Positions 21,545-59,670 of a DNA stretch of 64,000 nt are shown one piece after another. Both the position numbers and the translations under genes were made by a program. The DNA lies in the NCBI GenBank assembly GCA_964631605.1, contig CAZVYG010000017.1, positions 10,964 to 74,963 of the forward strand. The letters run 5' to 3'. The notes under the pieces are model-generated. The model was not told the origin of the DNA. It was given only the letters and a program-made list of their open reading frames with translations, and made no database searches. How positions within the stretch are numbered: the stretch's first letter is position 1; every line of letters begins with the position of its first letter. This DNA is from an uncultured Verrucomicrobiota bacterium (lineage in GTDB: Bacteria; Verrucomicrobiota; Verrucomicrobiia; Limisphaerales; UBA8199).

Positions 21545-21669
21545 TTGAAATGGAGATGATGGCGCGGCAGAGGCCGGGCGCGGGACTCTTTGGCGAAGGC
21601 CGCGCCGGGTTTGCTGCGCCCAAAGGCTGGATCATCCAGTCGGAATCTGCAATACTACTGGCCTAAAAT

Positions 21670-27781: not shown

Positions 27782-27805
27782 GGTTCCGGTTCTGGGAGGC
27801 CACTC

Positions 27806-29245: not shown

Positions 29246-32200
29246 GGACCTGCATTTCCGCTATTGTGTTCAAATGATGTGTCGGTGTATCGCGTTGAAC
29301 GCCCCCCGAGGATTCAGGGGCGTCCACCCTGCTCTTCTGGGCGTTTGGTTCACCCTGCTGTTATTGTTGGTTCCTCCGCCTGTCGTCGCCCAAACGCCCC
29401 TGGTCTGGTACGGCAATCTGAACAACCAATGGGACCAGAATGTCACGGCGAACTGGCTCGCGGGGGCCGCGCCGTCAGTATTTACCAATGGGGCGGCCGT
29501 GTTGTTTTCGGATGCCGCCGTTGGCTCGGGCTCCGTGACAGTGATTGGAACGGTGCAGCCCGCCGGCATCACGGTCAGCAATCTCTCCAAACCCTACCTC
29601 TGGACCGGACCCGGCGTGGTGGACGGCTCCGGGACTTTTACCAAGTTCGGCGTCGCACCCTTGACACTTGCAAACACGACCCGGCTCACGACAACCGGGA
29701 ACTTTGCGGTGGGGGCGGGAACTGTCACCGTATTTGGCGCGCCGGGCCAAACCAACGTCGTCAACGGCCAGCTTTGGGTGGGACACACGCCTGACAGTCC
29801 TGCGCACCTCGTCCTGAGCAACACGGCGCTGTCGGTCTCCTCGTGGTTTGCGATCGGGCGCGGCAACGGGACGGTTGGACATTCATCATCGGCCACGCTT
29901 TACGATTCGATTCTGTCCTGCAACAACACCGCCCTGGGTTACTGGGCCAACGTACCGGGCAACCGCCAAAATCCTGTGCTGACGCTCAACGGGAATTCCC
30001 GGCTGGTGAATGATGGCAGCACCGGGTTCAATTTGGGGGAAAGCTCCGGCTCGTCCGCCACGGTGACGATTAATGATGCCTCCTACGTCACTTCCAATCA
30101 GCGCGTTTTGCTCGGCATGGCCTCTGGGGCAACGGGGTCGCTCCTTATCGCGGCTTCGGGGGCGCTGACGAATGGCGGTTATGCCTCGGTCGGCGCGGTT
30201 GGCGTCGGTTCAGCAACGCTGAAGGACAACGCTGTCTGGCATGCCCCGGGCGACTTCAATGTTGCCGATACTTCCGGAAGCTTCGGCACACTCGCAGTGC
30301 AGGATAACGCCCGGCTTGTTATCAATACCCTTTACGTCGGCAAAGCCGCCAACTCCACAGGCGCGGTCCACCAAACCAGCGGCCGCGTTGCGCGCGGCGC
30401 CGGGGGCGGCGAGTGGCGGATTGGTGGCAATGTTTCGGGCGGCGCGAACCAGCTCGGCACTTACAGCCTCGCCAATGGGGTGCTGGATGCGGGGTCGGCA
30501 AATGTGCAGATTGGCGCCTATGGCACCGGCCAGTTTAATCAGAGCGGCGGCAGCGTCTTCATCGGCGGCTGGCCTTCCATCGCCCGTTTTACCGGCAGCA
30601 CGGGCATGCTGAACGTCTCGGGCGGAGCCTTTTACCAGACCGGCGCAAGCACGGCTTTAATCGTGGGGGAACAAGGGACGGGAACGCTGAACCTCAGCCA
30701 GATAGGTCTGATTCAACTGGCGAACAACCTCGTGATCGGCCACACCGCAACCGCCTCCGGCACGGTCAATCTCAACGGAGGCACGCTGATCACGCGCCGG
30801 GTGCTGAGAACCGATGCTGGCGCCACCGCGACACTCAATTTTAACGGCGGCATCCTACGAGCCGCCTCGGGAGCTGACCCGGCGTTTCTCGAAGGGCTTA
30901 CCGCGGCAAATGTGCAGGGCAGAGGAGCAATCATTGACTCCGGCACCAACTCAATCACCGTGTCCCAAGACCTTCTGAACGGCGGAGGAAACGGCGGCCT
31001 GATCAAGCAGGGAGCGGGTACGTTGACTCTCTCCGGCAGTCTGCAGTATGCGGGCCCAACCCTCGTGAGCAACGGGAGGCTCATCATCACCGCACCCAAT
31101 ATCCCGGCCACCTCCGGCATCACGCTTTCCGAGAATTCGGCCTTTGGCGTCAGGGTCCTCGCGAGCGATGCGCGGGTGCAGGTTTTGCAGCTCGGTTTGG
31201 CTGGCGGCTCCCAGACCGCGCTTGACTTCGACTTGGGCGCCTTGGGCACGCCGACGGTTGCCCCCCTGTTTGTTTCCGGGACGTTCTCGCTGAACGGCGT
31301 CGCCACCATCAATCTGGCCGGGGCCAACTTCCAACTGGGTCGGCTGCCGCTGTTGAAGTATGGCAATCTTGCGGGAACCGGGCGGTTCGTTCTTGGGACG
31401 CTTCCCTACGGCATGGCCGCCCAACTGGTTACCAACCAGGCCACGCAGACCCTCGAGCTGAATGTCACAGCCGAGCCCACCGCGCCGGCCTGGAGCATGA
31501 AGCAGGCGCCGTTGATGACCGATTGGGCGCAGCAGGTTGACCCGAACAATCCTTGGCCCGAGTATCCGCGCCCCCAACTGCAGCGTCCGGATTGGATGCA
31601 CCTCAACGGCGTCTGGCAATGGCAGCCCGGGAATACCGCCGACCCACTGCCCACCAACAACCTAATCGGCTCGATCCTCGTGCCGTTCTGCATGGAATCC
31701 GCCATTTCAGGCGTGATGGAGCACCATGAGCGTGCGTGGTATCGCCGGACGTTCACGGTGCCGCCGGCGTGGGCCGGGCAACGAGTTCTACTGCATTTCG
31801 AGGCTGTGGATTGGGAATGTGAGCCGTTCCTCAACGGCGTCAGCCTCGGCATCCACCAGGGCGGCTACGATCCGTTCAGTTTCGACATCACCCCCTACCT
31901 GACCAACTTGGGTCCCCAAGCCCTCGTGGTTAGAGTCTATGACCCCACCGACTCGACTTCCGGGCCCGTGCTGGCCCCGTCCGGCAAACAGCACCTGAAC
32001 CCAGGAGGCATCTGGTACACGCCCTGTTCGGGCATCTGGCAAAGCGTGTGGCTCGAACCGGTGCCGGTCACGCGCATCGCCGACCTCCAAATGGTGCCGG
32101 ACATTGACTCGAGGCAGGTCAGAATCAAAGTGGCGGTTTCCGGACCAACCGCCGGGGTTTCCGTCCAAGCCACGGCGTTTGACGGCACCAACCAGGTCAG

Positions 32201-45537: not shown

Positions 45538-45743
45538 TTGTTACCAGCCCGAGTGCGGCCCCGGAGGACTTCGGGGTTAGACGTTCACCCCTCGATGTCC
45601 GGCGCCAGGTTCACTTTAGCTTGTGAGGAAGCGCCGTGCGCATCTCCGGGCCAGCCCCTAACCCGATTCGAGCCGGGCAAAGGGGGTTTGCCGTTGTGGC
45701 GTTTCGCCTTCGAGGTTCGAGATCCCATTCCCAAGGTTCAATC

Positions 45744-48700
45744 ATGCGCTTCACCCTCTGTTCACCACATCTCTTCTTGACGGGGGCTCTCGCCTTCCTG
45801 CTCGCGACGCTGGGCCCCCTGCCTGCCATTGCCCTGGGCACCGGCCTGACGGGTGAGTATTTTGACAACAGCGACTTCACCACCCTGCGCGCGACCCGGA
45901 TTGACCCGACTGTGGACTTCAATTGGGGCGCCGGCGCCCCGACCAACACCATGGGCACCGACACGTTCTCGGTCCGCTGGTCTGGCCAGGTCGAACCCGA
46001 GTTTTCCGAGACCTACTCTTTCCATGTCACCGCGGACGACGGCGCCCGGCTTTGGGTCAACAACCGGCTGTTGTTTGCTCGCACAACTTATTCGGCGGCC
46101 GCCCTGGAGATGTCCGGCCGGATCAATCTGGTCGCCGGCCAACGCTATAATATTGTCCTCGAATTCATCGAAGGGGCGGGCAACGCGCAGGTTCAGCTTG
46201 CGTGGTCCAGCCCCAGCCGGCCCAAAGAAATCATTCCACAAGGGCGGCTTTATCCGGCGGTGGCCGCTCCAGAAAGCGGGTCAATTCTCGCTGAGACCTG
46301 GCTCAATCTGCCGGGCACCAATGTCGCCACCCTGACTTCCGCCCCGAACTATCCTTCCCGGCCGGACGGCCGCGAGTTTCTGACCTCCATGGAAACACTC
46401 CAGCCGGATTGGACCGATGATTACGGTACGCGGGTTTCCGGTTTCCTGCTGCCGCCCCGTGACGGAACTTACACCTTCGCGGTCGCCGGCGCCGACGCGG
46501 TCCAGCTCTTCCTGAGCCCCGATGCCAGCCCTGCCTCGAAACAACTCATTGCCTCGAACAACACCCCCACCGGCCTCCGTCAGTTCAACCTGCTGCCAGG
46601 CCAGGTTTCCGCTCCCGTTGCCCTCAACGCCCACACGAAGTATTACGTCGAACTGGTTCATAAAGCCGGCACGGGCGCGGACCACTTTGCCGCCGCGTGG
46701 ATCGAGCCGGGCGGTTCGAACTTCACGATAATCCCCGCCAGCGCTCTCATTCCAGCGGGTCTTGACCGCGCCGCTCCCGCCCAAAACAACTACCTCGACA
46801 CCCTCACCGGATCGCACCCCCGGTTGCTTGCCTCGAGCCAGCGTTTCGAGTGGCTCAAACGAACCCTCGCCTCGAACTCGGTTCCCCAGCTCAACTCGTG
46901 GTGGGCCACGGTCAGTAATTCGGCCTCTGCGATGCTCTCCCAGCCGGTCAATGTTTACAACCAGGACGTGCGCGGCACCATCCTTGCCGTCAGCCGGAGC
47001 GTGGTGGATCGCATGTACAAGCTGGGCCTGGCCTGGCGCATGACGGGCAACAACATTTTCGCCGAGCGCGCCTGGGCCGAACTCGAGCAGGTTGCTTCCA
47101 CCAACTTCCCCGATTGGCACCCGGCGCACTTCCTGGATACGGCGGAAATGACCCACGCGTGCGCCATCGGCTACGACTGGCTTTACGATTACTGGACTCA
47201 GCCGCGGCGCGACACCATCCGCACTGCGATCATCAACAAGGGGCTGAACCCTTCGCTCACGCTCTACACCAATAATTCGAGTTGGGTGGCCTCCTCCGCC
47301 AACAACTGGAACCTGGTCTGCAACGGGGGCATGATCCTGGGCGCCCTGGCGATCGGCGCCGAGAACGAACCCCTCGCCGAATACGTTCTCTCGAAAGCGG
47401 TCGCCTCCGCCAGGCTGGTCATGCGCCATTACACAACGGACAACGGCGGCTGGTATGAGGGCCCCGGTTACTGGGATTACACCACCGATTACAACATGCG
47501 CCTCATGGCCGGCCTGGAATCGGCTCTTGGCTCGGATTTCGGCCTTAGTGCCGTCTCTTCGGTCTGGGAGACGGGGCTGAACCCGATCTACATGGTGGGT
47601 CCGTTGAAGCTCTCCTTTAATTACGCCGATGCAGGAGCCGGGAACATGCGCGGACCACAACTCTTTTGGCTCGCGCGCCGCCATAACCGTCCCGAATTCA
47701 GTTGGCATGAGCGCAACAACGCTTCGGTCGAACCGCTCGATCTTCTGTGGTACGATGGCCGCGGCTTTGATCCACAAACCACCGGTCTTCAGCCCGACAA
47801 TTACTTTCGCGGCCCCACCGGCACGACGCCGTACGCCACCGCCGATGCGGTAACGTTGCGTTCGCGCTGGCAGGACACCGATGCCACTTTCGTTGGGACC
47901 AAGGGCGGCGAACTGGGCGCCAGCCACGGCAACTTGGATGCGGGCAGTTTTGTGCTCGACGCCCTCGGCGTGCGCTGGGCGCATGATCTCGGCGGGGATG
48001 ATTACGCGCTGCCCGGCTATTTCGGCTCGCAGCGCTGGACCTATTACCGCCTGCGCGCCGAGGGCCACAACACCCTGGTCATCAATCCCAGTTCTGCCGC
48101 TGACCAGACCGTAGGGGCCAAACCGCCGGTCATCCTCCATACCTCGGAACCGAACGCCGAGCGCAGCGCGGTCGTTCTGGACCTGACCAGCGCCTACTCC
48201 GTCTCGAAGGTCTGGCGCGGGATTCAGCTTTTGCGCAATCGCCGGTGGGTGCTGGTCCAGGACGAAATCCGTGCCGGCTCGCCCGCCAACGTCTGGTGGT
48301 TCATGCACATTCATACCAACAGCGCCGTCACGCTTGATCCCTCCGGGACCTCCGCCATGCTGACTCAAGGTTCCGATCGTCTGTGGGTGCGCATCCTCGA
48401 AGGTGGGGGCACGATCACGGTAAGTAATGCGGTCCCGTTGCCCACCTCTCCGAACCCGGCCGGGCAAAATCCGAATGCGAGCTATCGCAAACTGGCGGTC
48501 AACCTCGCAAACGTCACCAACACGACCTTCGCCGTTCTTTTTGTGCCGCTGTACCCTGCTGAAACCCCGCCGACCAACTTTCCGCCCATTGTGCCGTTGG
48601 CTGATTGGGGCGCGGCGGACACCAACGCCTTCGGCATCGTCTCAAACCAACCGCCGGTGGCGGTTTCCGCCCAAGTGGCCGTCGGCGCGGGTACTCCCCT

Positions 48701-50669
48701 CGATCTGGACCTTCGCACCCTTGCCTCGGACCTCGAGACGCCAGCCGATCAGCTCTTGTTTGCTGTGCTGCAGCCCACCAACGGGACAGTCTCCCTGTTG
48801 TCCGATGGTCACACCGCCCGGTTCATTCCCTCACCCGGTTTCACGGGTCCGGCCTCGTTCCAATTCAGCGTGGTGGACACCTGGCCGGATCCCCGCCTGA
48901 TGGCGCACTTCGACTTTGAACCGCCGGAGGACACCCTGGACGGCGCCATCACCGACCGTTCGAGTCGGGCGGTGCCAGGTATTCTCACCACCGTCGGTTC
49001 CGGAACCAATTACCTTTCGCCGGACACCCCGCCGCAGCTTGGCCTGCGCTCTTCTCAATCCTTGCTCCTGCGCGAAGCCGGAGACTTCAACGGCTCCCGA
49101 CTGGTGGCCTCTGTTAACCCCGCAGACCTTGACTTTAACAAAGACGACTGGACGTTCACCGCCTGGTTTAAGCGACTCTCCAGCACCAACGACGATTTTC
49201 TGTTCTATATCGGCAGCAGTGATGGATTCGGGTCGCCCGACGAGTTCCAGGTTTATGGCCCCTCGGGGCAGAACTCGCTGACCCTGCGCCACTACATCGC
49301 CACGACCACCACCGATGCCGACCTGTCGGTCGGGGGTGTGGTTCCCGGCCAGTGGTATCACGCTGCGGTCTCCTTTCGCTCCACGGCAGGGAATACGGGT
49401 GAAATCGCCTTTTACCTGAATGGCAACCTTGTGGGTTCCGACTCTTCTGTAACGTTGAACATGGCCTCGGGCTCCTCGGCAGTGTTCGGCGGTCACATGT
49501 CCTCCAGCTTTGCCATCACCCGCTGGTTCAACGGGGTGATTGACGACGCCACGATTTTCCGCGGTGTCCTCTCCCCGCAGGAAATCTCGCGTCTGATTTC
49601 CCTGCCCGCGGCCTATCGGGGCGGCGCCCGCGCCACCAACACCGTTTTGCTGACCGTGCTGCCGCCCAACCAACCTCCGACCATGACGGCCCTGTCCAAC
49701 CTCTCGGTGATCGCAGGCGCCCAGCTTTTACTGCCGGTGCCCGCGGCAGACCCCGACTCTCCGCCCCAGCGGCTCGTTTTCTCGCTGCTGAGCGCCCCCC
49801 CGGGCGCCGCCATTGACCCTGGGTGGGGTGTGATTTCCTGGCGGCCGACAGTCGCCCAAGCCGGCACGACCGGCCTGTTCCAAGTCGTCGCCACCGAAGC
49901 GGGCTGGCTGACCAACCTGGCTCCGGAAGCCGATGCCTATGTCCGGGATGGAAGCTACGCCTCCCTGAACTTCGGCTCGGATCCGCTGCTAACGGTTAAA
50001 CTGGGCGCCAGCGGTCTGGCCCGGGAATCCTACCTGCGCTTTCCAGCTCCCGTCATGCCCGGGTCGCTCGCCGACGCGGTGCTTCAACTGACCCCTGTGG
50101 CGACCAACGTGCCCGCCCCTCACCTGCTGGGCATGGTTACCAACGACAACTGGAGTGAATCCGCCCTGACGTGGAACAACCGCCCGACGTCGTCCGCCGT
50201 TCTGGCCAGTTGGACAGCGCAGGCCGGTGTTCCGATTCAAGTGCCGCTGGCTCCGTTGTATGCGCAGGAGCAGGTCGGTGATGGCCTGATCTCGTTGCGG
50301 ATTTACGCTACCAACACGACCAGTGACGGAAGAGTGGACTACGCGTCGCGGGAAAACTCCCCTGACCTGGCGCCCCGCATCATGGTTTTCAGCACCAATT
50401 GGTCCGCGCTGAGTGTCACGCAGACTTTCCTGGTATCCGTCGTTGCCCCTCAACCGCCCCGTCTTGCCCCGCTGGGCATCCACCATGGCGCGTTCGAGTT
50501 TCGGGTCAGCGGCGACCCCGGCCCGGATTACACGGTGCAGGTTTCCACGAACCTGCTGCAGTGGACCACCCTGCTAACCACCAACTCAGCAACGGTTCCT
50601 TTTACCCTCGCCGATCCCGTTTCGACAAATTGGCCCGTGCGGTTCTACCGGGCCTTGCTCGGGCCCTGA
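45744..50669 (+). CDS. Giant secreted modular protein: PA14 x2, heparinase II/III-like lyase module, Ig-like, LamG-like, cadherin-like, DNRLRE/CBM96-like, FYR tail
   Basis: GLTGEYFDN...TFSVRWSG (PA14); HPRLL, HFLDTAEM, NNWNLVCNGG, EGPGYW and HGNLDAGSF (heparinase II/III-like); EADAYVRDG...RESYLRF; ends RFYRALLGP. Confidence 0.82.
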   Translation: MRFTLCSPHLFLTGALAFLLATLGPLPAIALGTGLTGEYFDNSDFTTLRATRIDPTVDFNWGAGAPTNTMGTDTFSVRWSGQVEPEFSETYSFHVTADDGARLWVNNRLLFARTTYSAAALEMSGRINLVAGQRYNIVLEFIEGAGNAQVQLAWSSPSRPKEIIPQGRLYPAVAAPESGSILAETWLNLPGTNVATLTSAPNYPSRPDGREFLTSMETLQPDWTDDYGTRVSGFLLPPRDGTYTFAVAGADAVQLFLSPDASPASKQLIASNNTPTGLRQFNLLPGQVSAPVALNAHTKYYVELVHKAGTGADHFAAAWIEPGGSNFTIIPASALIPAGLDRAAPAQNNYLDTLTGSHPRLLASSQRFEWLKRTLASNSVPQLNSWWATVSNSASAMLSQPVNVYNQDVRGTILAVSRSVVDRMYKLGLAWRMTGNNIFAERAWAELEQVASTNFPDWHPAHFLDTAEMTHACAIGYDWLYDYWTQPRRDTIRTAIINKGLNPSLTLYTNNSSWVASSANNWNLVCNGGMILGALAIGAENEPLAEYVLSKAVASARLVMRHYTTDNGGWYEGPGYWDYTTDYNMRLMAGLESALGSDFGLSAVSSVWETGLNPIYMVGPLKLSFNYADAGAGNMRGPQLFWLARRHNRPEFSWHERNNASVEPLDLLWYDGRGFDPQTTGLQPDNYFRGPTGTTPYATADAVTLRSRWQDTDATFVGTKGGELGASHGNLDAGSFVLDALGVRWAHDLGGDDYALPGYFGSQRWTYYRLRAEGHNTLVINPSSAADQTVGAKPPVILHTSEPNAERSAVVLDLTSAYSVSKVWRGIQLLRNRRWVLVQDEIRAGSPANVWWFMHIHTNSAVTLDPSGTSAMLTQGSDRLWVRILEGGGTITVSNAVPLPTSPNPAGQNPNASYRKLAVNLANVTNTTFAVLFVPLYPAETPPTNFPPIVPLADWGAADTNAFGIVSNQPPVAVSAQVAVGAGTPLDLDLRTLASDLETPADQLLFAVLQPTNGTVSLLSDGHTARFIPSPGFTGPASFQFSVVDTWPDPRLMAHFDFEPPEDTLDGAITDRSSRAVPGILTTVGSGTNYLSPDTPPQLGLRSSQSLLLREAGDFNGSRLVASVNPADLDFNKDDWTFTAWFKRLSSTNDDFLFYIGSSDGFGSPDEFQVYGPSGQNSLTLRHYIATTTTDADLSVGGVVPGQWYHAAVSFRSTAGNTGEIAFYLNGNLVGSDSSVTLNMASGSSAVFGGHMSSSFAITRWFNGVIDDATIFRGVLSPQEISRLISLPAAYRGGARATNTVLLTVLPPNQPPTMTALSNLSVIAGAQLLLPVPAADPDSPPQRLVFSLLSAPPGAAIDPGWGVISWRPTVAQAGTTGLFQVVATEAGWLTNLAPEADAYVRDGSYASLNFGSDPLLTVKLGASGLARESYLRFPAPVMPGSLADAVLQLTPVATNVPAPHLLGMVTNDNWSESALTWNNRPTSSAVLASWTAQAGVPIQVPLAPLYAQEQVGDGLISLRIYATNTTSDGRVDYASRENSPDLAPRIMVFSTNWSALSVTQTFLVSVVAPQPPRLAPLGIHHGAFEFRVSGDPGPDYTVQVSTNLLQWTTLLTTNSATVPFTLADPVSTNWPVRFYRALLGP

Positions 50670-50709
50670 CACGGTTCAGACGCGGGGAGGCCGTGCGCAA
50701 AGCCCCGGC

Positions 50710-52242
50710 TCAGCAGGCTTGCCGCAACTGGCGGACCAGGGTGCGGTCGCGATCGTAGATGTTGACGCAGAGGGGCACATGCCCGGGCAGCGCGTGGGTC
50801 GCGCAGCCGAAGCAGGGATCGTAGGCGCGAAAGGCCATTTCCACCATGTTCAGCAGGCCATCGTCCACCTTGCCCTTCTTGATGAGCCCCTTGGCGGCTT
50901 TGTCCACGCTCATGGCGATGCGGGCGGCATTGTTCTGCGTGGCGACGATCAGGTTTGCCATTTGGATCAGGCCGCGTTCGTCGGTTTCGAAATGGTGGAA
51001 CAGGGTGCCGCGCGGGGCTTCCACGACGCCAATGCCCACCTTGGGTTTGGCCTGCGGGATTTCGCGCAGGTTGGTGCTGGTGATTTCGTGGTCGTTCAAC
51101 AACTCGACGATCCGCTCCGCCGCGTAAATCATTTCAACGATCCGCGCCCAGTGATTCGCAAGCGTGTGATGAACCGGCTTGCCGCCGAGGGTCTGGAAAA
51201 ACTCCTCGTAGGCTTTTTGGGCGTGGGGCGTGGCCATGCCGTCCGCGACGTTGAGGCGTGCCAGGGGCGCGACCGCATACACACTGCTCTGGGGAAACTC
51301 TTCAAAGCCGTGCCAGCCGAGCGGCTTGAGGTAACAGAACTTGATGTAACTCCAGGGTTCGACGTGTTCGGCGATAAACTCGCGGTAACGCTGGGCGGGG
51401 AACTTGGCATACTCCTTGCCGGTGGAGTTTACGACGCGGAGCTGGCCGTCATAGAAGTTGATCCAATTCTGGGCGTCCACCAGACCGAGATAGTAGGTTC
51501 GGTGCGTATAGCTTTCCGACTTGATGAGGTTGACGTATTGCGGGTTGCGCAAGACGATATCCTTGAACACCTGCAAGGTGAACAAGGCGAACTCGACGGC
51601 ATCCTTGCCCAGTTCTTTGAACCGGGGCAGGTCCTCGGGTTTGAGGCCTTTGGACACGCCGCCGGGCAGGCCCATGACCGGATGGATCACCTTGCCGCCG
51701 AAGTAGGCAATCAGCTCGCGCACGCGCCGGCGCATGGAGATGACCTTTTTGCCGGTCTCCAGCCCCACCTTCTGCACGACGCCCACCACGTTGCGCTGCT
51801 CCTTCGGTGCGTCGGGTCCCACAATGAAATCCGGGCCGCCCAGCAAATAAACATGCAGGGCGTGGTCCTCGAGCATGAAGGCGTTATAGACCAGCTCGCG
51901 AATTTTCCGCGCCGCCGGCGGAGGTTCGACCTGATAAAGGTCATCCAGCGCCTTGGTCGCCGCCATGTGATGAGCGGTCGGGCACACGCCGCAGATGCGG
52001 CTGGTGATCTGGGGCATTTCCTCCGCGGGCCGGCCGATGCTGAAGACCTCGAAGCCCCGGAGTTCGGGGATTTGCAGGTAGGCATGCTCGACGTCGCCCT
52101 GGTCGTTCAAAAAGATATCAATCTTGCCGTGGCCTTCCAGCCGGGTGATTGGGTCAATCGTAACGCGGCGGCGCTGGGCTTGAGCGGCGGCGCCCGCGCG
52201 GGCCTGGGCTTCGTTCCAAACAGATGTTGCAGCGGGGTTCAT
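50710..52242 (-). CDS. mvhA: [NiFe]-hydrogenase large subunit, MvhA-like (group 3c by gene context)
   Basis: DPITRLEGHGK, L1 motif RICGVC, EAPRGTLFHH, L2 motif DPCFGCATH plus a cleavable C-terminal extension. Confidence 0.92.
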   Translation of the reverse strand: MNPAATSVWNEAQARAGAAAQAQRRRVTIDPITRLEGHGKIDIFLNDQGDVEHAYLQIPELRGFEVFSIGRPAEEMPQITSRICGVCPTAHHMAATKALDDLYQVEPPPAARKIRELVYNAFMLEDHALHVYLLGGPDFIVGPDAPKEQRNVVGVVQKVGLETGKKVISMRRRVRELIAYFGGKVIHPVMGLPGGVSKGLKPEDLPRFKELGKDAVEFALFTLQVFKDIVLRNPQYVNLIKSESYTHRTYYLGLVDAQNWINFYDGQLRVVNSTGKEYAKFPAQRYREFIAEHVEPWSYIKFCYLKPLGWHGFEEFPQSSVYAVAPLARLNVADGMATPHAQKAYEEFFQTLGGKPVHHTLANHWARIVEMIYAAERIVELLNDHEITSTNLREIPQAKPKVGIGVVEAPRGTLFHHFETDERGLIQMANLIVATQNNAARIAMSVDKAAKGLIKKGKVDDGLLNMVEMAFRAYDPCFGCATHALPGHVPLCVNIYDRDRTLVRQLRQAC

Positions 52243-53237
52243 GATTCCTTTCCGTTGCCGTTGTCAGTCGGGAGATTCACTTTTCGACGCAACAGACTCT
52301 TGGGCAATCCATAGCGGTAAAAGGTGCCGACCGGGTCGGGAATGCCAGCCAGGACCTCGGCGATTTCCTTGCCCTGTTTGGGCGCCAGGTTGGCGCACAA
52401 GGATGACAAAATCTTGGCGCCTTGGTCCCGCACGCGGGAGGTGGGGCCGAAGCAACCGGTACAAGGCATGTTTCCACAGGTGCAGGCAGCCTCGCACCCG
52501 CCGCGCGTGGCCGGCCCCATGCATACGATTCCCTGCGCCAGGAAGCACTCCTCGGGGTCGCTGTGGGTCAGGTGAGTGCGGCGAAACTCGGCAAAACTGA
52601 GGTCGGCCGGTTTGGTCGCTTTCCGCGGGCATTGCTCGCAAAGCGCAATGTCCGGCGCCAGCACCGTGCCCCGGGGCGGCAGGTTCCCAGCCAGCAAGGC
52701 CTGCAGGGCTGCCTGGGTAATCTTGGGGGTCGGCGGGCAGCCGGGGATGTAGAAGTCCACCTCCACCACCTGGTCGAGCGCGCGGACCACGTGCCGCAGT
52801 TCCGGCAGTGTGAGGTGATGGCCTTTAATATCCGTATTCACGGCGGGCCGCACCTTGTTCGGGTTGACGACCGAGGGAGCCTCTTCGAAGACAAAACGCA
52901 GCAGGTGCTCCCGGGAAAACTGGTTCGCCAGGCCCGGGATGCCGCCCAGGTGGGCGCAGGCGCCGTAGGCAATCAGGTACTGGCTCTTGCGCCGGAGCAT
53001 CCGCGCCATTTCCTCCTGTTCACTCGAACGGATGGCGCCATTGACCAGGGTCGCCAGGATGGACTGGTCCGGCAGGGCTTCGACATCTTCCTTCTTGAAG
53101 TCCATTGCGCAGGGCCAGAAGACAATATCCACGGCTTCCACCACGCCGAGGATGTCCTCCGCAAAGTCCACCACCGCCTCCTCGCATCCGCCGCACGAGG
53201 CGCACCAGTAAAAGCCGATTTTGGGTTTAGCGGGCAT
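52239..53237 (-). CDS. mvhG: [NiFe]-hydrogenase small subunit, MvhG-like
   Basis: CASCGGCE, YGACAHLGG, IPGCPP, CEQCP and C..QGIVCMGPATRGGC...C...NMPCTGC.GP motifs. Confidence 0.9.
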   Translation of the reverse strand: MPAKPKIGFYWCASCGGCEEAVVDFAEDILGVVEAVDIVFWPCAMDFKKEDVEALPDQSILATLVNGAIRSSEQEEMARMLRRKSQYLIAYGACAHLGGIPGLANQFSREHLLRFVFEEAPSVVNPNKVRPAVNTDIKGHHLTLPELRHVVRALDQVVEVDFYIPGCPPTPKITQAALQALLAGNLPPRGTVLAPDIALCEQCPRKATKPADLSFAEFRRTHLTHSDPEECFLAQGIVCMGPATRGGCEAACTCGNMPCTGCFGPTSRVRDQGAKILSSLCANLAPKQGKEIAEVLAGIPDPVGTFYRYGLPKSLLRRKVNLPTDNGNGKES

Positions 53238-53769
53238 GGGTCATCTCCGGTTGGGCGGCGGGCGCCGCCGCTTCGTGTTGCTTGATTTCGTGGGCCAGTT
53301 CGGCCATTTCCTGGTCCCAAGCCTTAAACCGGCCGGGCAGGTCCAACGGCCCCAACTGCCGCAATCGGGCCACCATGTCGTTGACCACTGTTCGGACTTT
53401 TTCGCCTTCGCTGGCCGAAATCCACTCGAGACGCAACCGCGGTTCTTCGATGCCCAGGTCGGTGAGCATTCGCTTGAGCATTTCAAACCGGCGGAGAGTC
53501 TTGTAGTTCCCCTCCACATAATGACAGTCCCCGGGATGACAGCCGCCGATGAGCACGCCGTCGGCTCCCCGCGCGAAGGCTTCGACAATAAACTGCGGGT
53601 CCACGCGCCCGGAACACATCAGGCGGATCACGCGGATATTCGGCTCGTATTTGAGCCGCGATACGCCCGCCAGGTCCGCCGCCGTGTAGGTGCACCAGTT
53701 GCAGAAGAAAGCCGCGATGCGCGGCTCCCACCCCGCCGCTCCAGGTTTTTGGTCACTCATGCGATCCAT
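53227..53769 (-). CDS. mvhD: [2Fe-2S] hydrogenase/Hdr coupling subunit MvhD
   Basis: FCNWCTYTAAD, MCSGRVDP, GGCHPGDCHY and EWISASEG motifs. Confidence 0.95.
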   Translation of the reverse strand: MDRMSDQKPGAAGWEPRIAAFFCNWCTYTAADLAGVSRLKYEPNIRVIRLMCSGRVDPQFIVEAFARGADGVLIGGCHPGDCHYVEGNYKTLRRFEMLKRMLTDLGIEEPRLRLEWISASEGEKVRTVVNDMVARLRQLGPLDLPGRFKAWDQEMAELAHEIKQHEAAAPAAQPEMTHAR

Positions 53770-53789
53770 GTGTTAAAGGTTTGACCGGC

Positions 53790-55793
53790 TCAGGAGGCCA
53801 GGACACCGGCGATTTCATTGAAGATTTGCTCGTCCTCGAACAGGTGCTGCCGGATGGAGCCGGACGGGCAGGAAGCGACGCAGGTGCCGCAGCCTTTGCA
53901 CAAGGCTTCGTTGATGCGCGCCTTGCGCGTGGGTTCATCAAAGCTGATGGCAGTGTAGGGGCAGAGGGGCACGCAACTCTTGCACCCCGAGCAGTCGGCT
54001 TCGACGATGTAGGCCGTGTTGGGCTCCTGTTCGATGTAACCTTTATCAATCAACGCCAGAGCCTCGGCGGCGGCCGCCCCGGCCTGCGCGATGCTGTCGG
54101 GGATGTCCTTGGGCCCCTGGCAGCAACCGGCGATAAAAACGCCGTCCGTGAAGGTGTTCACGGGCGCCAGTTTGGGATGCTTCTCAAGGAACCACCCTTC
54201 CGTGCTGCAGCTTAAATTGAACAGGCGGCGCACATCCTGCGAGTCGGCGTTGGGCTCCATGCCCACCGCCAGCACGATCATGTCCACCGGAATGCGGCGC
54301 ACAAAACCCGCCAGGGTATCCTCGACGCGGATGACCAGCTTGCCCTCCTCCTCGGGGGCCAGGGCCCAGTCGGTGACTTCGGCCACGCGCCCGCGGACGA
54401 AGCGGATCCCCTCGCGGAGCGACTTGTCGTAGAACTCCTCGCATCCTTTGCCTGGCGCCCGGATGTCCATGTAGAAAATGGTAACATCCGCGCCGGTGTG
54501 CTCCTTGAACAACTGCGCCAGCTTCATCGAGTGCATGCAGCAGGTGCGCGAGCACCAGCGATTGGTTTTCACATCGCGCGATCCCACGCACAGGATGAAC
54601 CCCGCCGTGAGGGGCTTGCTCCCGTCCCGCAAAATAATCTCGCCGCCCGTCGGCCCCGAGCTGTTCACCAGCCGCTCCAGCTCCAGCGAGGTGACCACGT
54701 TTGGATACAAGCCGTAGCCGTACTGCGGAATCCGGGTCGCATCAAACAGCTTGAAGCCGGTCGCCAGAATCATCGTGCCCACCTGGATTTCGACCAACTG
54801 CTCCTTCATCGAGAAGTCTATCGCCTTGCGGTCGGCACAGGCTTCCAGGCAGCTTTTCTTGCACTTGCCGGTTTTCACCTGAAGACAGCGCTCGGGATCA
54901 ATCACCACCGCCTGGGGCACCGCCTGCGGGAAGGGAAGGTAAACGGGCTTGCGCTTGCTGAGGCCCACATTGAACTCGTCGGGAAACCGCGAATCCTTGT
55001 ACACGCAGGCGGTGATGCATTCCTGGCAGCCCACGCACAAATCCTCGTGCACATACCGGGGCTTGCGCTTCACCGTGACTTTGTAGTTGCCTACATAGCC
55101 CTCGACCTTGACGACCTCCGAGTAGGTCCAAAGCGTGATGTTTTCGTGTGCTCGAACCGCCGACATTTTGGGGGTCAGAATGCAGGCCGCGCAGTCCAGC
55201 GTGGGGAAGGTCTTGTCGAATTTGGCCATGTGGCCGCCAATACTCGGCTCCCGCTCGACCAAGGTGACCTTCTTTCCGGCGTTGGCGAGGGTCAGGGCGG
55301 CGTGAATGCCCGCAATCCCGCCCCCGACAACCAACACATCCGGGTTGATCGGCACCCGCGTGGTCTCCAGCGGGCGGTGGAAGCGCACGCGCTCGATCGC
55401 GGCCCGCGCCAGCGCCTTGGCCTTCGCGGTGGCAGCGGCGCTGTCGGCATGGACCCACGAGTTGTGCTCGCGGATGTTGACCATCTGGAAGTAGAAGGGG
55501 TTGAGGCCGCCGCGCTCGACGGCGCCACGGAAGGTATGCTCGTGCAGCAGCGGGGAGCAGGAGGCCACCACCACGCGGTTGAGCTTGTGCTCGCGAATGT
55601 CCTGCTGGATCAGTTCCTGGCCGGGATCCGAGCACATGTACTTGTAATGACGCGACAGCACCACGCCCGGCAGTTTCGAGGCATATTCCGCCACCGCCGG
55701 ACAATCCACCACGGCCCCGATGTTGTGCCCGCACTGGCAGACATAAAACCCGATTCGGATCTCGCCATTTCCATTCTTGGAGGAAGCGCTCAT
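53790..55793 (-). CDS. hdrA: Heterodisulfide reductase subunit A (FAD, Fe-S)
   Basis: IGFYVCQCG, CSDPGQ, VVASCSP, VLVVGGGIAG, KTFPTLDCAACIL, CVGSRD, CSRTCC, GCCQGPKDI and two terminal ferredoxin motifs. Confidence 0.96.
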   Translation of the reverse strand: MSASSKNGNGEIRIGFYVCQCGHNIGAVVDCPAVAEYASKLPGVVLSRHYKYMCSDPGQELIQQDIREHKLNRVVVASCSPLLHEHTFRGAVERGGLNPFYFQMVNIREHNSWVHADSAAATAKAKALARAAIERVRFHRPLETTRVPINPDVLVVGGGIAGIHAALTLANAGKKVTLVEREPSIGGHMAKFDKTFPTLDCAACILTPKMSAVRAHENITLWTYSEVVKVEGYVGNYKVTVKRKPRYVHEDLCVGCQECITACVYKDSRFPDEFNVGLSKRKPVYLPFPQAVPQAVVIDPERCLQVKTGKCKKSCLEACADRKAIDFSMKEQLVEIQVGTMILATGFKLFDATRIPQYGYGLYPNVVTSLELERLVNSSGPTGGEIILRDGSKPLTAGFILCVGSRDVKTNRWCSRTCCMHSMKLAQLFKEHTGADVTIFYMDIRAPGKGCEEFYDKSLREGIRFVRGRVAEVTDWALAPEEEGKLVIRVEDTLAGFVRRIPVDMIVLAVGMEPNADSQDVRRLFNLSCSTEGWFLEKHPKLAPVNTFTDGVFIAGCCQGPKDIPDSIAQAGAAAAEALALIDKGYIEQEPNTAYIVEADCSGCKSCVPLCPYTAISFDEPTRKARINEALCKGCGTCVASCPSGSIRQHLFEDEQIFNEIAGVLAS

Positions 55794-55815
55794 AATCTCT
55801 GGCTGGTTACGCAAT

Positions 55816-56727
55816 TCACCGGCTGGCTTTTTCCGCAGGCTTGGGCGGCGCCCCGGCCTGGCTCGCGCCGTTGCCCCACTTCAGCGGCAGCGGAACGAAG
55901 TTCCGATGCAACCCCAGTTGGCGGGGTTCGAGGCCAAAGGCCAACCCCATCAATTGGGTGAAATAAACCGTCGCAATCCGCGCCTCGCCCCAGCGCCGGA
56001 CAATTTGATCGTGATAGGCGTCGAGATTAAACTGGCACAAGGGACAGATGGTCGCGATTACATCGGCGCCCCGGCGGACAGCCTCCTTGAGCAGGATGTA
56101 GCTCATCCGCAAACCCGCCTCCGGCAGCGTGCCGGTCAGGCTGCCGCCGCAACACTTGGTCTTCAAGGGGTAGTGTAACACCTCCGCGCCCAGGGCCGCC
56201 AATATCTTGTCCATCGTTACCGGGTTCCAGGCTTCATCGAAAGTGGCGTAAGGCCGGACGACCTGGCAGCCGTAATAGGGAGCCACCTTGAGGCCGGTCA
56301 GCGGCCGCACCACTTTTTGCTTGATCGCCTCGACGCCCACGTCGTGGAACAACACATCCAGCGGGTGCCGCACCACTGTGGTGCCCTTGTAGGCCAGTTT
56401 GGCGCAATCCAGCGCCCGCTGAACATTTTCCGCAATCTCGGGGAAATCGTTGATGTTGTGCTTGGCCTTGTTCAAAACCAGGTAGCAGGCGCTGCATGGG
56501 GCCAGCAAATCCTGCGGGCCGGACTTTTCGGCGATTGCCAGGTTTCGCGCGGCGAGCACCGTTGCTTCATGCTCGTCCACAGACATGTAAGCCGTTGCTC
56601 CGCAGCAATTCCAATCATCCAGTTCCATCAATTCGACGCCAAGATGCCGCATGACCGGCAGCAGCGATTCCTCGTAAGCGCGACCCAGGCCTTTGAGCGA
56701 ACAACCCGGAAAATAGAGGTATTTCAT
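55816..56727 (-). CDS. hdrB: Heterodisulfide reductase subunit B (two CCG domains)
   Basis: YFPGCSL, NCCGA, PCSACY, YYGCQ, KCCGG and CPLCQFNLD motifs. Confidence 0.95.
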   Translation of the reverse strand: MKYLYFPGCSLKGLGRAYEESLLPVMRHLGVELMELDDWNCCGATAYMSVDEHEATVLAARNLAIAEKSGPQDLLAPCSACYLVLNKAKHNINDFPEIAENVQRALDCAKLAYKGTTVVRHPLDVLFHDVGVEAIKQKVVRPLTGLKVAPYYGCQVVRPYATFDEAWNPVTMDKILAALGAEVLHYPLKTKCCGGSLTGTLPEAGLRMSYILLKEAVRRGADVIATICPLCQFNLDAYHDQIVRRWGEARIATVYFTQLMGLAFGLEPRQLGLHRNFVPLPLKWGNGASQAGAPPKPAEKASR

Positions 56728-57320
56728 GACTTAGCCTTTCCATTGCCGTTGCCGTTGACGGTCGCCAGCATCGCCGCCAGTTCCGCCTGCCGCTGGATCC
56801 GCTCGGGCTTGAGGACAAAGCGTCCCGTCCGAATCAGCCCCAACCCCAGGCGCCAGGAGCTCAACACCGCCCGCCAGTTGGCGCGCAGGAACAACTGCAT
56901 CACCAGCAGGGTCTCGGTGATCCGCCCCTTGCTCAGCACCATCTTGGCAAATTCCTTGGCCAGAATCGGGATGGGCATGTGCCGCGGATAGACATGCTCC
57001 TTGATCGCCCGCTGCTTGAGCGCATACATGATGTCCGTGATCCGAATCTGCCGCGGGCACTCGACCGTGCAGGCGTAACAGGAAGCGCACAGCCAGACGG
57101 TGTTGCTGGACAACACCTCGTTCTTGAAATCCGCCCGCACCAGCGCCATGACCTGCCGGGGGGAAAAGTCCATGTAAATGCTGAGCGGACAGGCGCCGGA
57201 ACAGGTGCCGCATTGGATGCAACTGGGGAGTTGCTCGCAACCGGTCACTCCCATGATCTCCCGGCCGAAGCCTTGAACTCGATCGGCGTCGTATTTAATC
57301 GTGCGCTTTATTTTTATCAT
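56724..57320 (-). CDS. hdrC: Heterodisulfide reductase subunit C (2x[4Fe-4S])
   Basis: CIQCGTCSGACP and WLCASCYACTVECPR motifs. Confidence 0.95.
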   Translation of the reverse strand: MIKIKRTIKYDADRVQGFGREIMGVTGCEQLPSCIQCGTCSGACPLSIYMDFSPRQVMALVRADFKNEVLSSNTVWLCASCYACTVECPRQIRITDIMYALKQRAIKEHVYPRHMPIPILAKEFAKMVLSKGRITETLLVMQLFLRANWRAVLSSWRLGLGLIRTGRFVLKPERIQRQAELAAMLATVNGNGNGKAKS

Positions 57321-57814
57321 AAGCTCACCCGATTCTTTTTGGGTATCTTGTCACGCAGCCCTAATTCTAGCTGCCAACAATACGCCTACTGCCGCTTAAG
57401 GTAGCTCATGGCAAATTAAACCCTCTAAACATCACTTGCCTATTCCTTGTCATTTCTTGGCATGCTTATGTTTGTTGCAACTCTGCGGGCAACACCCGGT
57501 TTCCGATCGTTGGCAGGATGCGCCCCGCTTTTGCGCCCGGTCCGCCGCACCACCACCCCGTTCGCAGGAGAGGCTTCGGGCGCTTGATCAGCGCTCCGTC
57601 CCGAACGCAATCTCGTGCGCGGCTCGGCGGAGGTATGTATCACCTTCGAGGCCACTGTCATCGCGTCCGTCGAGGCGAAGGCCAGGAATGACGAATCTCC
57701 GTTCGAGGGGGCGCTGGCAACGGACAGGTTGGCTACCAAGGCATGCCCTGAGCCAACCTTCCCAGTCTGCGCGTGCTCGACAATCCTCCCCGGGGGATTA
57801 CATTGAACCGCGAC

Positions 57815-58633
57815 ATGTTTGTTGAGCAGCAACCGCTTGTGATCGCCGGGCGAGCCTTCAGCTCGCGGCTGGTGATGGGCACCGGAAAGTTTGCGTCGCC
57901 CGAGACGATGCGGGACGCGTTGGCAGCCAGCGGAACCGAAATGGTGACGGTGGCCCTGCGGCGGGCGGATTTGACGGGCAAAAAAGACCCCTTCGCCAAT
58001 ATCCTCGAGTTCATTGACCCGAGGCGCTACCTGTTGTTGCCCAATACCAGCGGCGCGCAGAACGCGGAGGAAGCCGTGCGTCTGGCGCGGTTGGCCGCCG
58101 CGGCGGGGCTGCCGCGCTGGATTAAACTCGAGATTCACCCCGATCCTCGTTATCTGCTGCCCGATCCGATGGAAACCTTCAAAGCGGCAGAACAACTTGT
58201 CAAAGAGGGATTTACGGTCCTTCCGTATATCAACGCGGATCCGGTTCTGGCCAAGCGGTTGCAGGACGTCGGCACGGCCACGGTGATGCCCTTGGGTTCG
58301 CCTATCGGGTCGAACCGCGGAATGCAAACACGCGACCAGATTCGCATCATTATTGAGCAGGCCACAGTGCCGGTGGTGGTGGACGCCGGATTGGGCGCGC
58401 CCAGCCATGCGGCCGAGGCCATGGAACTGGGAGCCGATGCCGTTTTGGTCAACACGGCGGTTGCGGTGGCCAGCGACCCCGTCCGGATGGCTGCCGCTTT
58501 CAAGCTGGCGGTTGAAGCTGGACGCGCCGCTTATGAATGCGGCCTCGCCCAGCCGCAACTCGCCGCCAGCGCCACCAGTCCGCTCACCGCCTTCCTGGAT
58601 GAACCGGAATCCGAACCCGCGCGCTCGCCATGA
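57815..58633 (+). CDS. thiG: Thiazole synthase
   Basis: [40 protein letters not shown] and LVNTA motifs. Confidence 0.96.
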
Positions 58634-59670
58634 ACCGCCGCACCACCACCACCCCCTTGCCCCAGACTCTGCTGCGGCGGTCCCGCGTTCGGCAATTGCT
58701 TCGTGGCGCCTCTCGGGCCCGCGTGCTCGTCATCGGCGACGTAATGCTTGACCAGTTCATTTGGGGCACGGTGGCCCGCATCTCGCCCGAGGCGCCGGTG
58801 CCGGTGGTGGAGTTTCAGCGCGAGAGCTGCATGCCTGGCGGCGCGGCCAACGTCGCCCGCAACCTCACCGCGCTTGGGATTCCAACCGAGCTTTTTGGGA
58901 TCGTCGGCCACGATGCCTCGGGCCAGCAGCTCAAGAACCTCCTGGTGAACCACCGCATTGGGTGCCAGGGGCTGATTACAAGCCGATCCCGGCCCACCAG
59001 CGTCAAAACGCGCATTGTCGCCCACCAACAACAGGTGGTCAGGATTGATCGCGAAAGCCGCGACGGCGTCGAGCCGGCTCTGGCCCGGCGGCTGGGCCGT
59101 TCCCTGGCATCGCGCATCGGCCATGCCCAGGCAGTGATTGTGGGAGATTACGGCAAGGGCGTTGTGACGCAGGGCTTGCTCGATGAACTCAAGCGCCTGT
59201 GCCGCAGCCACGCGGTCTGGCTCAGCCTGGATCCCAAACCCGTGCATTCCCTTGATCTCGCCGGCCTCTCGCTCATCACCCCCAACCGCAAGGAAGCCTT
59301 CGAACTGGCCCGCATCCCGGACGAAACACGGGCAGCCGACCCGCTGAAAGATCGGAACCTGATGGCGGCCGCCCACCGCTTGCTTTCCGAACTCCGCCCC
59401 GCCGCGCTTTTGGTCACTCTGGGCGAGTTCGGCATGCTGCTCTGCCAACATCAGCAACCGCCCGTCCATATCCCAACCGTGGCGCAGGAAGTCTTCGACG
59501 TCTCCGGCGCCGGCGACACGGTCATTGCCACTTTTACGGTGGCGATCGCCGCGGGGGCCTCGCCACTTGAAGCTGCGATCCTCTCCAATCACGCCGCCGG
59601 TCTGGTCGTCGGCAAGATCGGCACGGCCACCGTCTCGCCGGAGGAGTTGCTGGCCAGCTTCCCAAACTAG
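58630..59670 (+). CDS. rfaE1: D-glycero-D-manno-heptose-7-phosphate kinase (stand-alone RfaE/HldE domain I, PfkB family)
   Basis: VIGDVMLD...[29 protein letters not shown] and DVSGAGDTV motifs. Confidence 0.9.

Follow-up and report, generated by a model that had tools for sequence, protein, structure and literature searches.

A probable group 3c-type [NiFe]-hydrogenase and heterodisulfide-reductase-like operon, hdrCBA-mvhDGA, in a freshwater Verrucomicrobiota bacterium

Results

The window analysed here, a stretch of 64,000 nucleotides from the MAG of a freshwater Verrucomicrobiota bacterium, holds an intact operon that quite probably encodes a soluble, cytoplasmic complex of the MvhADG-HdrABC type, in which a group 3c-type [NiFe]-hydrogenase is joined to a heterodisulfide-reductase-like module of a lineage that is widespread in bacteria and TACK archaea. 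Judged from its sequence, the complex would most likely oxidise H2 and, by flavin-based bifurcation, pass the electrons to ferredoxin and to an acceptor other than CoM-S-S-CoB. The host genome is 93% complete and belongs to a degrader of sulfated glycans; an earlier note on this DNA had called the host glycan-degrading, and this is borne out in the window by four sulfatases, GH43, GH2, and a heparinase II/III protein.

The operon consists of six close-set ORFs on the minus strand between 50710 and 57320, and the ORF map places hdrC, hdrB, hdrA, mvhD, mvhG, and mvhA, all intact and contiguous, exactly where the earlier note had them. Neighbouring genes overlap by 4 bp or 11 bp or are separated by gaps of no more than 20 bp, which indicates translational coupling. 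Under translation table 11 none of the six frames contains an in-frame stop and hence no in-frame TGA, in agreement with the earlier statement that selenocysteine is not used. On the far side of hdrC, the ORF map shows an intergenic stretch (57321..57772), the presumed location of the promoter and without a match to any Rfam family, that leads to the divergent thiG on the plus strand (57773-58633). Pfam and NCBIfam labels along the operon read Fer4 dicluster/HdrC, two CCG/HdrB, HdrA, FlpD/MvhD, Oxidored_q6/VhuG, and NiFeSe_Hases/VhuA, and the top or near-top PDB matches of all six subunits come from 5odc, the solved Hdr-Mvh complex of a methanogen, and from related structures. Every metal-cluster cysteine of that solved complex has its counterpart here, as had been claimed for the ligands, and neither Tat signals nor transmembrane segments were found in any of the six subunits.

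The gene hdrC (56724..57320, minus strand) encodes an HdrC-like subunit of 198 aa for two [4Fe-4S] clusters, with Fer4_8/9/17 domains. Its residues 20-116 share 33% identity with PDB chain 8rvv_C, with 8 of 8 cysteines aligned; the C-terminal half found no match in the PDB search, and the score on TIGR03290 (85.7 bits) stays under the cut-off of 160. The HdrB-like catalytic subunit (hdrB, 55816..56727, minus strand; 303 aa) carries the two CCG domains (PF02754 twice) for two noncubane [4Fe-4S] clusters that are expected of an HdrB, and aligns with 5odc_B at 35.5% identity and with 10 of 10 ligand cysteines, while scoring 182.1 bits on TIGR03288 against a cut-off of 345 and 515.1 bits for the genuine HdrB 5odc_B. 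The gene hdrA (53790..55814, minus strand; 674 aa), which starts with TTG, encodes the bifurcating subunit, with FAD and [4Fe-4S] clusters; it matches 5odc_A over its full length (716 bits, 52% identity). HdrA has the FAD domain and all conserved cluster cysteines, with one motif spaced differently: within the inserted ferredoxin domain, the second cysteine motif reads CX7CX3CX3C, here and throughout the bacterial clade, unlike in methanogen HdrA.

On the hydrogenase side, mvhD (53227..53769, minus strand) encodes the [2Fe-2S] adaptor that links the hydrogenase to HdrA, a protein of 180 aa that scores 183.8 bits on PF02662 (FlpD) and is 57.6% identical to 5odc_D with 5 cysteines aligned. The small subunit (mvhG, 52239..53237, minus strand; 332 aa) is of the long three-cluster type with VhuG as its top NCBIfam match; residues 6-316 align with 5odc_E over the full length (214 bits, 38% identity, 13 cysteines aligned), whereas the group 3d small subunits 7t2r_E and 5xf9_C align with residues 2-188 only. 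The [NiFe] large subunit (mvhA, 50710..52242, minus strand; 510 aa) has VhuA as its top NCBIfam match and shares 39.6% identity with 5odc_F. Its motifs L1 (RICGVCPTAHH) and L2 (AYDPCFGCATH) keep both CxxC pairs (RICGVC and DPCFGC), and 27 residues follow DPCFGCATH, which form the C-terminal tail cleaved on maturation that the earlier note had pointed out.

Group 3c large subunits are characterised by the motifs ICGxCxxxH and AYDPCxxCATH (PMC6085437). MvhA carries both, and they discriminate weakly, since LCGICPVSH and AYDPCLSCATH stand at these places in the HoxH of the same genome. MvhG has the long form of a 3c small subunit (~300 aa) with proximal, medial, and distal clusters, unlike the short single-cluster HoxY, and the linkage of mvhD with hdrABC that marks group 3c is found in the contiguous hdrCBA-mvhDGA, an arrangement kept in relatives. 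All six subunits score under the NCBIfam cut-offs for the methanogen equivalogs (VhuA 395.8 against 800, VhuG 197.5 against 450, and VhuD 125.2 against 215 for the hydrogenase side), and despite these scores the Vhu models are the best-matching families for MvhA, MvhG, and MvhD. Production of the CoM/CoB substrate by the organism, a mark of the CoB-CoM heterodisulfide reductase of methanogens, is not seen here in that the genome lacks a match to ComA, the one marker searched for.

In the MvhA tree the protein falls into a clade of bacteria and TACK archaea with 100% support, apart from methanogen Mvh; this position and the scores below the methanogen equivalog cut-offs make the earlier label "methanogen-type" imprecise. 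The gene identities given in that note hold. This clade takes in lineages that are called 3c in the literature (Thermoanaerobaculum, Sumerlaeota, Elusimicrobia), and the 3d references form a separate clade with the genome's own HoxH (99% support). The node that joins the bacteria/TACK clade to methanogen MvhA/VhuA is poorly supported in this tree, whose references leave out groups 3a, 3b, and 1. Close relatives of the cassette occur in more than 584 species genomes. It is carried by 27 of the 45 genomes of the host's family (60%, with 18 genomes lacking it) and by ~2% of a phylum-wide sample, and the six-gene order is repeated in relatives from Verrucomicrobiota, Elusimicrobiota, Ignavibacteria, Acidobacteriota, Armatimonadota, Chloroflexota, and TACK archaea. 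These counts, together with the O2 reductases encoded by the host, correct the earlier view that bacterial versions are known mainly from sulfate reducers and some other anaerobes. Since the same cassette is present in hundreds of uncultured bacteria, the operon counts as an ordinary representative of an enzyme class already known, and such cassettes have been reported before in bacteria and archaea without CoM, with the disulfide left unnamed (PMC8092238, PMC9723716, PMC6085437, PMC5296606).

Divergence from the methanogen complex is greatest in HdrB and HdrC (33-35% identity, as opposed to 52-58% for HdrA and MvhD), and 28 clade-invariant residues of HdrB differ from methanogen HdrB, many of them adjacent to cluster ligands. 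A search for ComA (PF02679), the one marker of CoM and CoB synthesis that was covered, gave no match in the genome and was positive for the Methanocaldococcus control. A search with PF04358, which among the Dsr proteins covered DsrC alone, yielded no genuine DsrC in the genome; its single match (25.3 bits) was rejected as it falls in a LexA DNA-binding domain. With no ComA in this bacterial host, CoM-S-S-CoB is excluded as substrate, and DsrC is excluded as acceptor because the only PF04358 match is LexA, so that the predicted acceptor is neither of the two, in line with what the earlier note had supposed. It is probably a disulfide or a related sulfur compound common to the whole bacterial clade. 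Across 80 loci no conserved neighbour genes hint at the acceptor, and the only other CCG domains in the genome lie in a GlcD-GlcF-like fusion (C2).

Discussion

Homology with the solved methanogen complex suggests the following electron path. The Ni-Fe site in MvhA would split H2, and MvhG, with its three clusters, would relay the electrons to the [2Fe-2S] cluster of MvhD. From there they would reach the FAD in HdrA, where the electron pair would be bifurcated. One electron would move uphill through the ferredoxin domains of HdrA to ferredoxin, and the other downhill, first via the two HdrC clusters and then via the two noncubane clusters of HdrB, to the high-potential acceptor. The direction is most likely that of net H2 uptake, which would supply reduced ferredoxin and a reduced thiol. 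The host encodes two A-type oxidases, a bd oxidase, and 2-oxoacid:ferredoxin oxidoreductases (three POR_N matches), and is probably a facultative aerobe on account of these genes; the ferredoxin-linked enzymes among them could consume the reduced ferredoxin.

A failure of the locus itself, either as an operon that was misassembled or misbinned or as one left without function by the lack of HypCDE maturation genes, can be set aside as very improbable. The contig is not chimeric: the junction at 50690 is crossed by contigs from two separate metagenomes and that at 57400 by one, with 0-2 mismatches and at even depth, and GC content runs unbroken at 0.62-0.63, which disposes of the suspicion that the contig might be chimeric or misassigned. 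The closest relatives of MvhA are moreover all from Verrucomicrobiota, and a genome of the same genus carries a copy that is 96% identical. What speaks for a dead locus is that the 93%-complete assembly yielded neither HypD nor HypE, and that the maturation protease gene, which follows mvhA in 57 of 80 relatives, lies outside the operon here. As the earlier note had it, the window is indeed free of hyp, maturation protease, dsrC, and com genes; the maturation genes are however not missing altogether, since HypA, HypB, HypF, and an orthologous Mvh-type protease are encoded on other contigs of the same genome. These genes, the level of completeness of the assembly, and the intact frames and ligands all count against a dead locus. 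HypD is present in 19 of 31 relatives, including the genome of the same genus.

With an intact operon in hand, the question becomes which way the complex runs and where the high-potential electron goes. It is unlikely that the complex works mainly backwards in sugar fermentation, forming H2 from reduced ferredoxin and a dithiol (confurcation) while NAD(P)H re-reduces the disulfide. Such a role would suit a glycan degrader whose 2-oxoacid:ferredoxin oxidoreductases yield reduced ferredoxin, and group 3c enzymes are regarded as reversible in MAG studies (PMC8092238). A confurcating, H2-evolving enzyme is less needed, however, because the genome already has a NAD-linked hydrogenase of the Hox type and, for ferredoxin-dependent H2 evolution, an Ech-like group 4 enzyme, and in the 80 loci no dedicated partner for regenerating the disulfide is tied to the operon. 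Nor is any Mvh-Hdr complex known to have such a reverse physiology. I give still less credence to a diverged HdrBC that hands the high-potential electron to quinone or another non-thiol acceptor, by which the complex would become an H2:ferredoxin/quinone bifurcase comparable to FixABCX. Such a transfer is ascribed to CCG-domain subunits like SdhE, found in type E succinate:quinone or methylmenaquinol:fumarate reductases. The window's HdrB scores 186 bits over its full length on the MFR SdhE model and much the same, 182 bits, on the CoB-CoM HdrB model; for a genuine HdrB the two scores are 158 and 515 bits. The host, without DsrC and ComA, furthermore has a quinone-based aerobic respiratory chain. 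Nevertheless, the score on the SdhE model is far below the cut-off of 500, HdrB retains all ten cysteines that ligate the disulfide-cleaving noncubane clusters, and in none of the six subunits does a membrane-binding or amphipathic anchor stand out. The quinone role of SdhE is itself not firmly established.

Under the preferred reading, that is H2 uptake with bifurcation to ferredoxin and probably to a sulfur compound, the 28 clade-invariant HdrB residues that differ from methanogens give grounds for a more specific, tentative proposal: the bacteria/TACK clade, with its own conserved HdrB active-site environment, may reduce one specific non-CoM acceptor, be it a small or protein-bound disulfide, a persulfide, or even a quinone. 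If true, facultatively aerobic soil and freshwater heterotrophs could make low-potential ferredoxin from H2. The presence of the cassette in some genomes and its absence from others within one verrucomicrobial family (27 and 18, respectively) would make the acceptor pathway traceable by phylogenetic profiling.

Compared with MvhAGD-HdrABC of methanogens (Methanothermococcus thermolithotrophicus 5odc; Methanothermobacter 8rvu/9sw2), the six subunits correspond one to one and share the Fe-S, FAD-domain, and Ni-Fe ligand cysteines, the long three-cluster small subunit, and the MvhD adaptor. In contrast to the methanogen systems, the genes form a single operon, hdrCBA-mvhDGA, without the mvhB polyferredoxin gene, the host has no ComA, HdrB and HdrC are strongly diverged, and MvhA sits in a separate clade. 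Mvh:Hdl/Hdr-like complexes of sulfate reducers (Archaeoglobus, Deltaproteobacteria) are proposed to reduce DsrC. They resemble the present system as a hydrogenase with an Hdr-like module in a non-methanogen for which a protein-disulfide acceptor is proposed (discussed in PMC5296606), and differ from it in that the search of the host genome here gave no genuine DsrC. The large subunit is also similar to those of the Hox-type group 3d enzyme 5xf9 and of NiFe-HydABCSL from Acetomicrobium mobile (7t2r), with phmmer scores of 317-366 bits against 353 bits for 5odc MvhA; their small subunits, however, are short and single-cluster and their partners a NuoEFG-like diaphorase instead of MvhD and Hdr. 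The sulfur-oxidising sHdr system (hdrC1B1A-hyp-hdrC2B2, LbpA, no hydrogenase genes) was considered and rejected, as the locus has a single hdrCB pair with mvhDGA downstream.

Of the same lineage are the group 3c/Hdr cassettes described from MAGs and isolates of non-methanogens, namely Sumerlaeota (PMC8092238), groundwater Elusimicrobia (10.1101/765248), Thermoanaerobaculum aquaticum (PMC5900883), and Culexarchaeia (PMC9723716). With the loci of Sumerlaeota, Elusimicrobiota, Thermoanaerobaculum, and TACK archaea the present operon shares both the fully supported clade and the gene order, and it is set apart from them by its occurrence in a Verrucomicrobiota family with 60% carriage, by O2 reductases in the host, and by a protease gene detached from the operon.

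A complete Mvh-Hdr operon in an intact locus

The ORF map, together with Pfam and NCBIfam assignments, placed six tightly packed genes on the minus strand, joined by overlaps of 4 or 11 bp or by gaps of at most 20 bp: hdrC (56724-57320; Fer4 dicluster/HdrC), hdrB (55816-56727; two CCG domains/HdrB), hdrA (53790-55814; TTG start, HdrA), mvhD (53227-53769; FlpD/MvhD), mvhG (52239-53237; Oxidored_q6/VhuG), and mvhA (50710-52242; NiFeSe_Hases/VhuA). The best or near-best PDB matches of all six proteins were chains of methanogen Hdr-Mvh complexes (5odc, 8rvu, 9sw2, 7bkb, and 9sfi). An earlier note had described this operon as free of in-frame TGA codons and complete in its cysteine ligands, and both statements held: none of the six ORFs contained an in-frame stop, and alignments to the PDB chains recovered 10 of 10 cysteines in HdrB, 8 in HdrC, 5 in MvhD, 13 in MvhG, and both CxxC pairs in MvhA. 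Every cluster cysteine of HdrA was likewise conserved in an alignment with 43 orthologues and the HdrA chain of the Methanothermococcus thermolithotrophicus complex (5odc_A). The cleavable tail ascribed to MvhA consists of 27 residues following DPCFGCATH. Since ORFs, domains, PDB matches, ligand cysteines, and MvhA tail all agree, the observation was correct in every detail, and the operon encodes every subunit and all cofactor-binding sites of a bifurcating Mvh-Hdr complex. HdrBC was checked for membrane association and no hydrophobic segment stood out; the complex is soluble. A search for riboswitches or other RNAs near the operon or thiG returned no Rfam match between 44000 and 64000, and none of the RNA runs searched for mvhA contained it.

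A chimeric contig, which the earlier note had named as a concern for the junctions at 50690 and 57400, could be ruled out. GC content was flat (0.62-0.63) over the operon and its flanks, and the region was found in two freshwater metagenomes, X1 and X2, from different studies. Independently built contigs from both (X1, 49720-51209; X2, 50418-50949) cross the junction between mvhA and the PA14 gene near 50690, and one X1 contig (55581-58421) crosses the hdrC/thiG junction at 57400. In these Logan contigs, 0-2 mismatches were seen and depth stayed even at ~6-9. The flanking genes are ordinary chromosomal ones (thiG, a pfkB kinase, panB, a PilT-like ATPase, and a prepilin-type N-methyl protein), the last being typical for Verrucomicrobiota.

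Classification of the hydrogenase

A large-subunit tree was computed with PDB references typed from alignments, the host's own HoxH, and paralogues from related loci. MvhA fell into a 100%-supported clade of bacteria and TACK archaea, within which the Verrucomicrobiota formed one 99%-supported group. The references of group 3d, the Hox type (5xf9 HoxH, 7t2r HydL, and host HoxH), made up a separate 99%-supported clade, and methanogen MvhA and VhuA branched apart from the clade of the window, with the deep node unresolved. In phmmer searches of MvhA against the PDB, 3c and 3d references scored alike. The architecture of the small subunit was a clearer criterion than the tree: MvhG is of the long type and matches 5odc_E across its whole length, while the alignment with 3d small subunits is confined to its N-terminal 188 residues. 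Group 3d was consequently rejected, with MvhA outside the 3d clade and a small subunit of Mvh architecture. The combination of a long MvhG-type small subunit with MvhD and Hdr genes supports a predicted assignment to group 3c (Mvh/Vhu type) in the functional sense. The label 'methanogen-type' used in the earlier note is imprecise, as the lineage, within the limits of that deep node, is sister to the methanogen enzyme; none of the six proteins reached its NCBIfam equivalog cut-off.

Divergence from the methanogen complex

Identity to the 5odc chains ranged from 58% (MvhD) and 52% (HdrA) through 40% (MvhA) and 38% (MvhG) to 35% (HdrB) and 33% (HdrC, of which only the N-terminal half aligned). 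Against the NCBI model for CoB-CoM HdrB, which has a cut-off of 345 bits, the HdrB of the window scored 182 bits and the genuine 5odc_B 515; on the SdhE model (methylmenaquinol:fumarate reductase) it reached 186 bits. The active-site comparison proposed earlier showed that HdrB keeps its cysteines but differs around them: 28 positions are invariant in 42 bacterial-clade sequences and differ from the residue common to two methanogen HdrBs, and many flank cluster ligands (W39-N40-CC-G43-A-T45, P77, Y151, T190, L230, N234, and L235). This residue pattern fits a putative conserved acceptor of the bacterial clade that is unlike the methanogen's. The inserted ferredoxin domain of HdrA, the presumed electron donor to ferredoxin, is remodelled across the clade, as its second [4Fe-4S] motif (residues 310-326) reads CX7CX3CX3C in the window protein and the 43 bacterial-clade orthologues, compared with CX2CX2CX3C in 5odc_A.

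Acceptor candidates and maturation genes

The earlier note had remarked on the lack of CoM and dsrC genes in the window. In the genome as a whole ComA is absent, which speaks against CoM as a candidate, and there is no genuine DsrC, the sole PF04358 match being weak and a false positive inside LexA. From this context, the acceptor would be neither CoM-S-S-CoB nor DsrC. Clustering all ORFs of 80 related mvhA loci yielded no neighbour that names an acceptor; a maturation protease recurred directly after mvhA in 57 loci and an HdrD-like gene in 13, and otherwise only some hyp genes did. Elsewhere in the genome, CCG domains occur only in a GlcD-GlcF-like fusion, a 945-aa frame around 58608-58835 on the minus strand of contig C2 that joins a GlcD-like FAD dehydrogenase to 4Fe-4S and CCG domains.

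The host encodes two further [NiFe]-hydrogenases, three in all: a Hox-type NAD-linked enzyme (C16:13717-18291) with HoxF-, HoxU-, HoxY-, and HoxH-like genes, and an Ech-like group 4 enzyme (C12:28317-34082), with the motifs RICGIC...DPCISCTER in its large subunit and flanked by NuoL-, NuoH-, NuoB-, and NuoC-like and ferredoxin subunits. A sigma-54-type activator lies upstream of the Ech-like cluster, in which the 341-aa NuoB-like small subunit (C12:31227-32252) seems to have an extra C-terminal half that resembles a GNAT acetyltransferase.

Most maturation genes, none of which had been seen in the window, are present in the genome: a HycI-family protease adjoins hypF on C128 (4277-7125), and hypA and hypB are on C22. 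The protease is an orthologue (55-62% identity) of the gene directly after mvhA in the nearest relatives, and is simply detached from the operon in this host. It was the only HycI-family protease found in the assembly, and the Hox-type large subunit also has a C-terminal tail cleaved on maturation; the two enzymes may share this protease, or else the assembly lacks a HoxW gene. Neither a Pfam search nor tblastn with relatives' proteins found hypD or hypE in the assembly, a gap attributed to incomplete assembly because hypD is present in 19 of 31 relatives, including a same-genus genome.

Host and distribution

The assembly (5.19 Mb, 155 contigs) is 93% complete. Its window holds a sulfated-glycan degradation locus on the plus strand (18023-33872 and 45636-50669), so the host had rightly been called glycan-degrading. 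The locus encodes four sulfatases, one fused to GH43 and 3-keto-disaccharide hydrolase domains, a GH2 giant with PATR repeats (1560 aa), a protein with a doubled FAD_oxidored domain (1173 aa), and a PA14/heparinase II-III/Laminin_G/CBM96 protein (1677 aa), whose gene converges on mvhA with its end 40 bp away. With two strong A-type haem-copper oxidases, one cytochrome bd oxidase, and three 2-oxoacid:ferredoxin oxidoreductase-type genes, the host is, judging from its gene content, probably a facultative aerobe or microaerophile and not a strict anaerobe.

Among the matches listed, the closest relatives of MvhA were all Verrucomicrobiota MAGs (72-83% identity). Scanning one genome per species returned more than 584 loci encoding a close MvhA relative, and among the 80 fetched the order hdrC-hdrB-hdrA-mvhD-mvhG-mvhA recurred in Verrucomicrobiota, Elusimicrobiota, Ignavibacteria, Acidobacteriota, Armatimonadota, Gemmatimonadota, Chloroflexota, Nitrospirota, and TACK archaea. 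An orthologue was present in 27 of 45 genomes of the host family (60%; 63-96% identity) and in ~8 of 400 genomes (~2%) sampled evenly across the phylum. The cassette is thus a common trait of one glycan-degrading Verrucomicrobiota family, apparently kept vertically.

Several related loci deviate. In L003, L016, L033, and L053, mvhA is immediately preceded by an additional hdrC-hdrB pair that has diverged from the one in the window (35-46% identity); in the last three hdrA-mvhD-mvhG sits several kb further upstream, so this cassette is rearranged with a different HdrBC module. Some 1.4 kb of additional sequence interrupts the hdrA match in four loci from Acidobacteriota, Sumerlaeia, and Acetothermia (L026, L031, L041, and L062). 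In three genomes (G206:C36, G266:C2, and G248:C28) the frames of Verrucomicrobiota large subunits of ~40% identity contain TGA at one or two codons, which may mark selenocysteine sites or pseudogenes.

Proposed function and comparison with known systems

The electron path in methanogens was reportedly laid out by Wagner and by Kaster and their colleagues, in 2017 and 2011. By homology to 5odc, H2 would be oxidised at MvhA and electrons would pass via MvhG and MvhD to the FAD of HdrA, which would bifurcate the pair to ferredoxin and, via HdrC, to the noncubane clusters of HdrB. The earlier note had also considered the confurcating, H2-evolving direction. I regard such reversal as unlikely, given that the Ech-like and Hox-type enzymes already serve ferredoxin- and NADH-linked H2 evolution; for the same reason, genomic context makes net H2 uptake more likely. 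A quinone or other non-thiol acceptor is less probable still, with no hydrophobic segment standing out in HdrBC, and an artefact or dead locus is the least probable reading of all in view of the flat GC content and the evenly covered junctions. Overall, the original observation is confirmed and its interpretation partly supported.

Enzymes of this kind are already known and widespread, and the window adds another member. MAG studies reported group 3c hydrogenases with Hdr in Sumerlaeota (PMC8092238), Elusimicrobia (10.1101/765248), Acidobacteria (PMC5900883), and Culexarchaeia (PMC9723716), and likewise noted the lack of CoM and an unidentified disulfide; with many such genome surveys of CoM-less bacteria, the finding alone adds little. 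Almost nothing was found in the literature on Mvh-Hdr of Verrucomicrobiota specifically, for which a cassette common in one family and rare elsewhere in the phylum is now documented. The main value lies in the acceptor question of the bacterial clade and in the probably facultatively aerobic host: when complete genomes were surveyed earlier, Mvh-Hdr turned up in obligate anaerobes alone (PMC6085437), whereas this host encodes O2 reductases. HdrB of the clade has its conserved differences around the clusters, and the division of the family into genomes with and without the cassette gives a way of approaching an old question, namely which substrate HdrB reduces outside methanogens.
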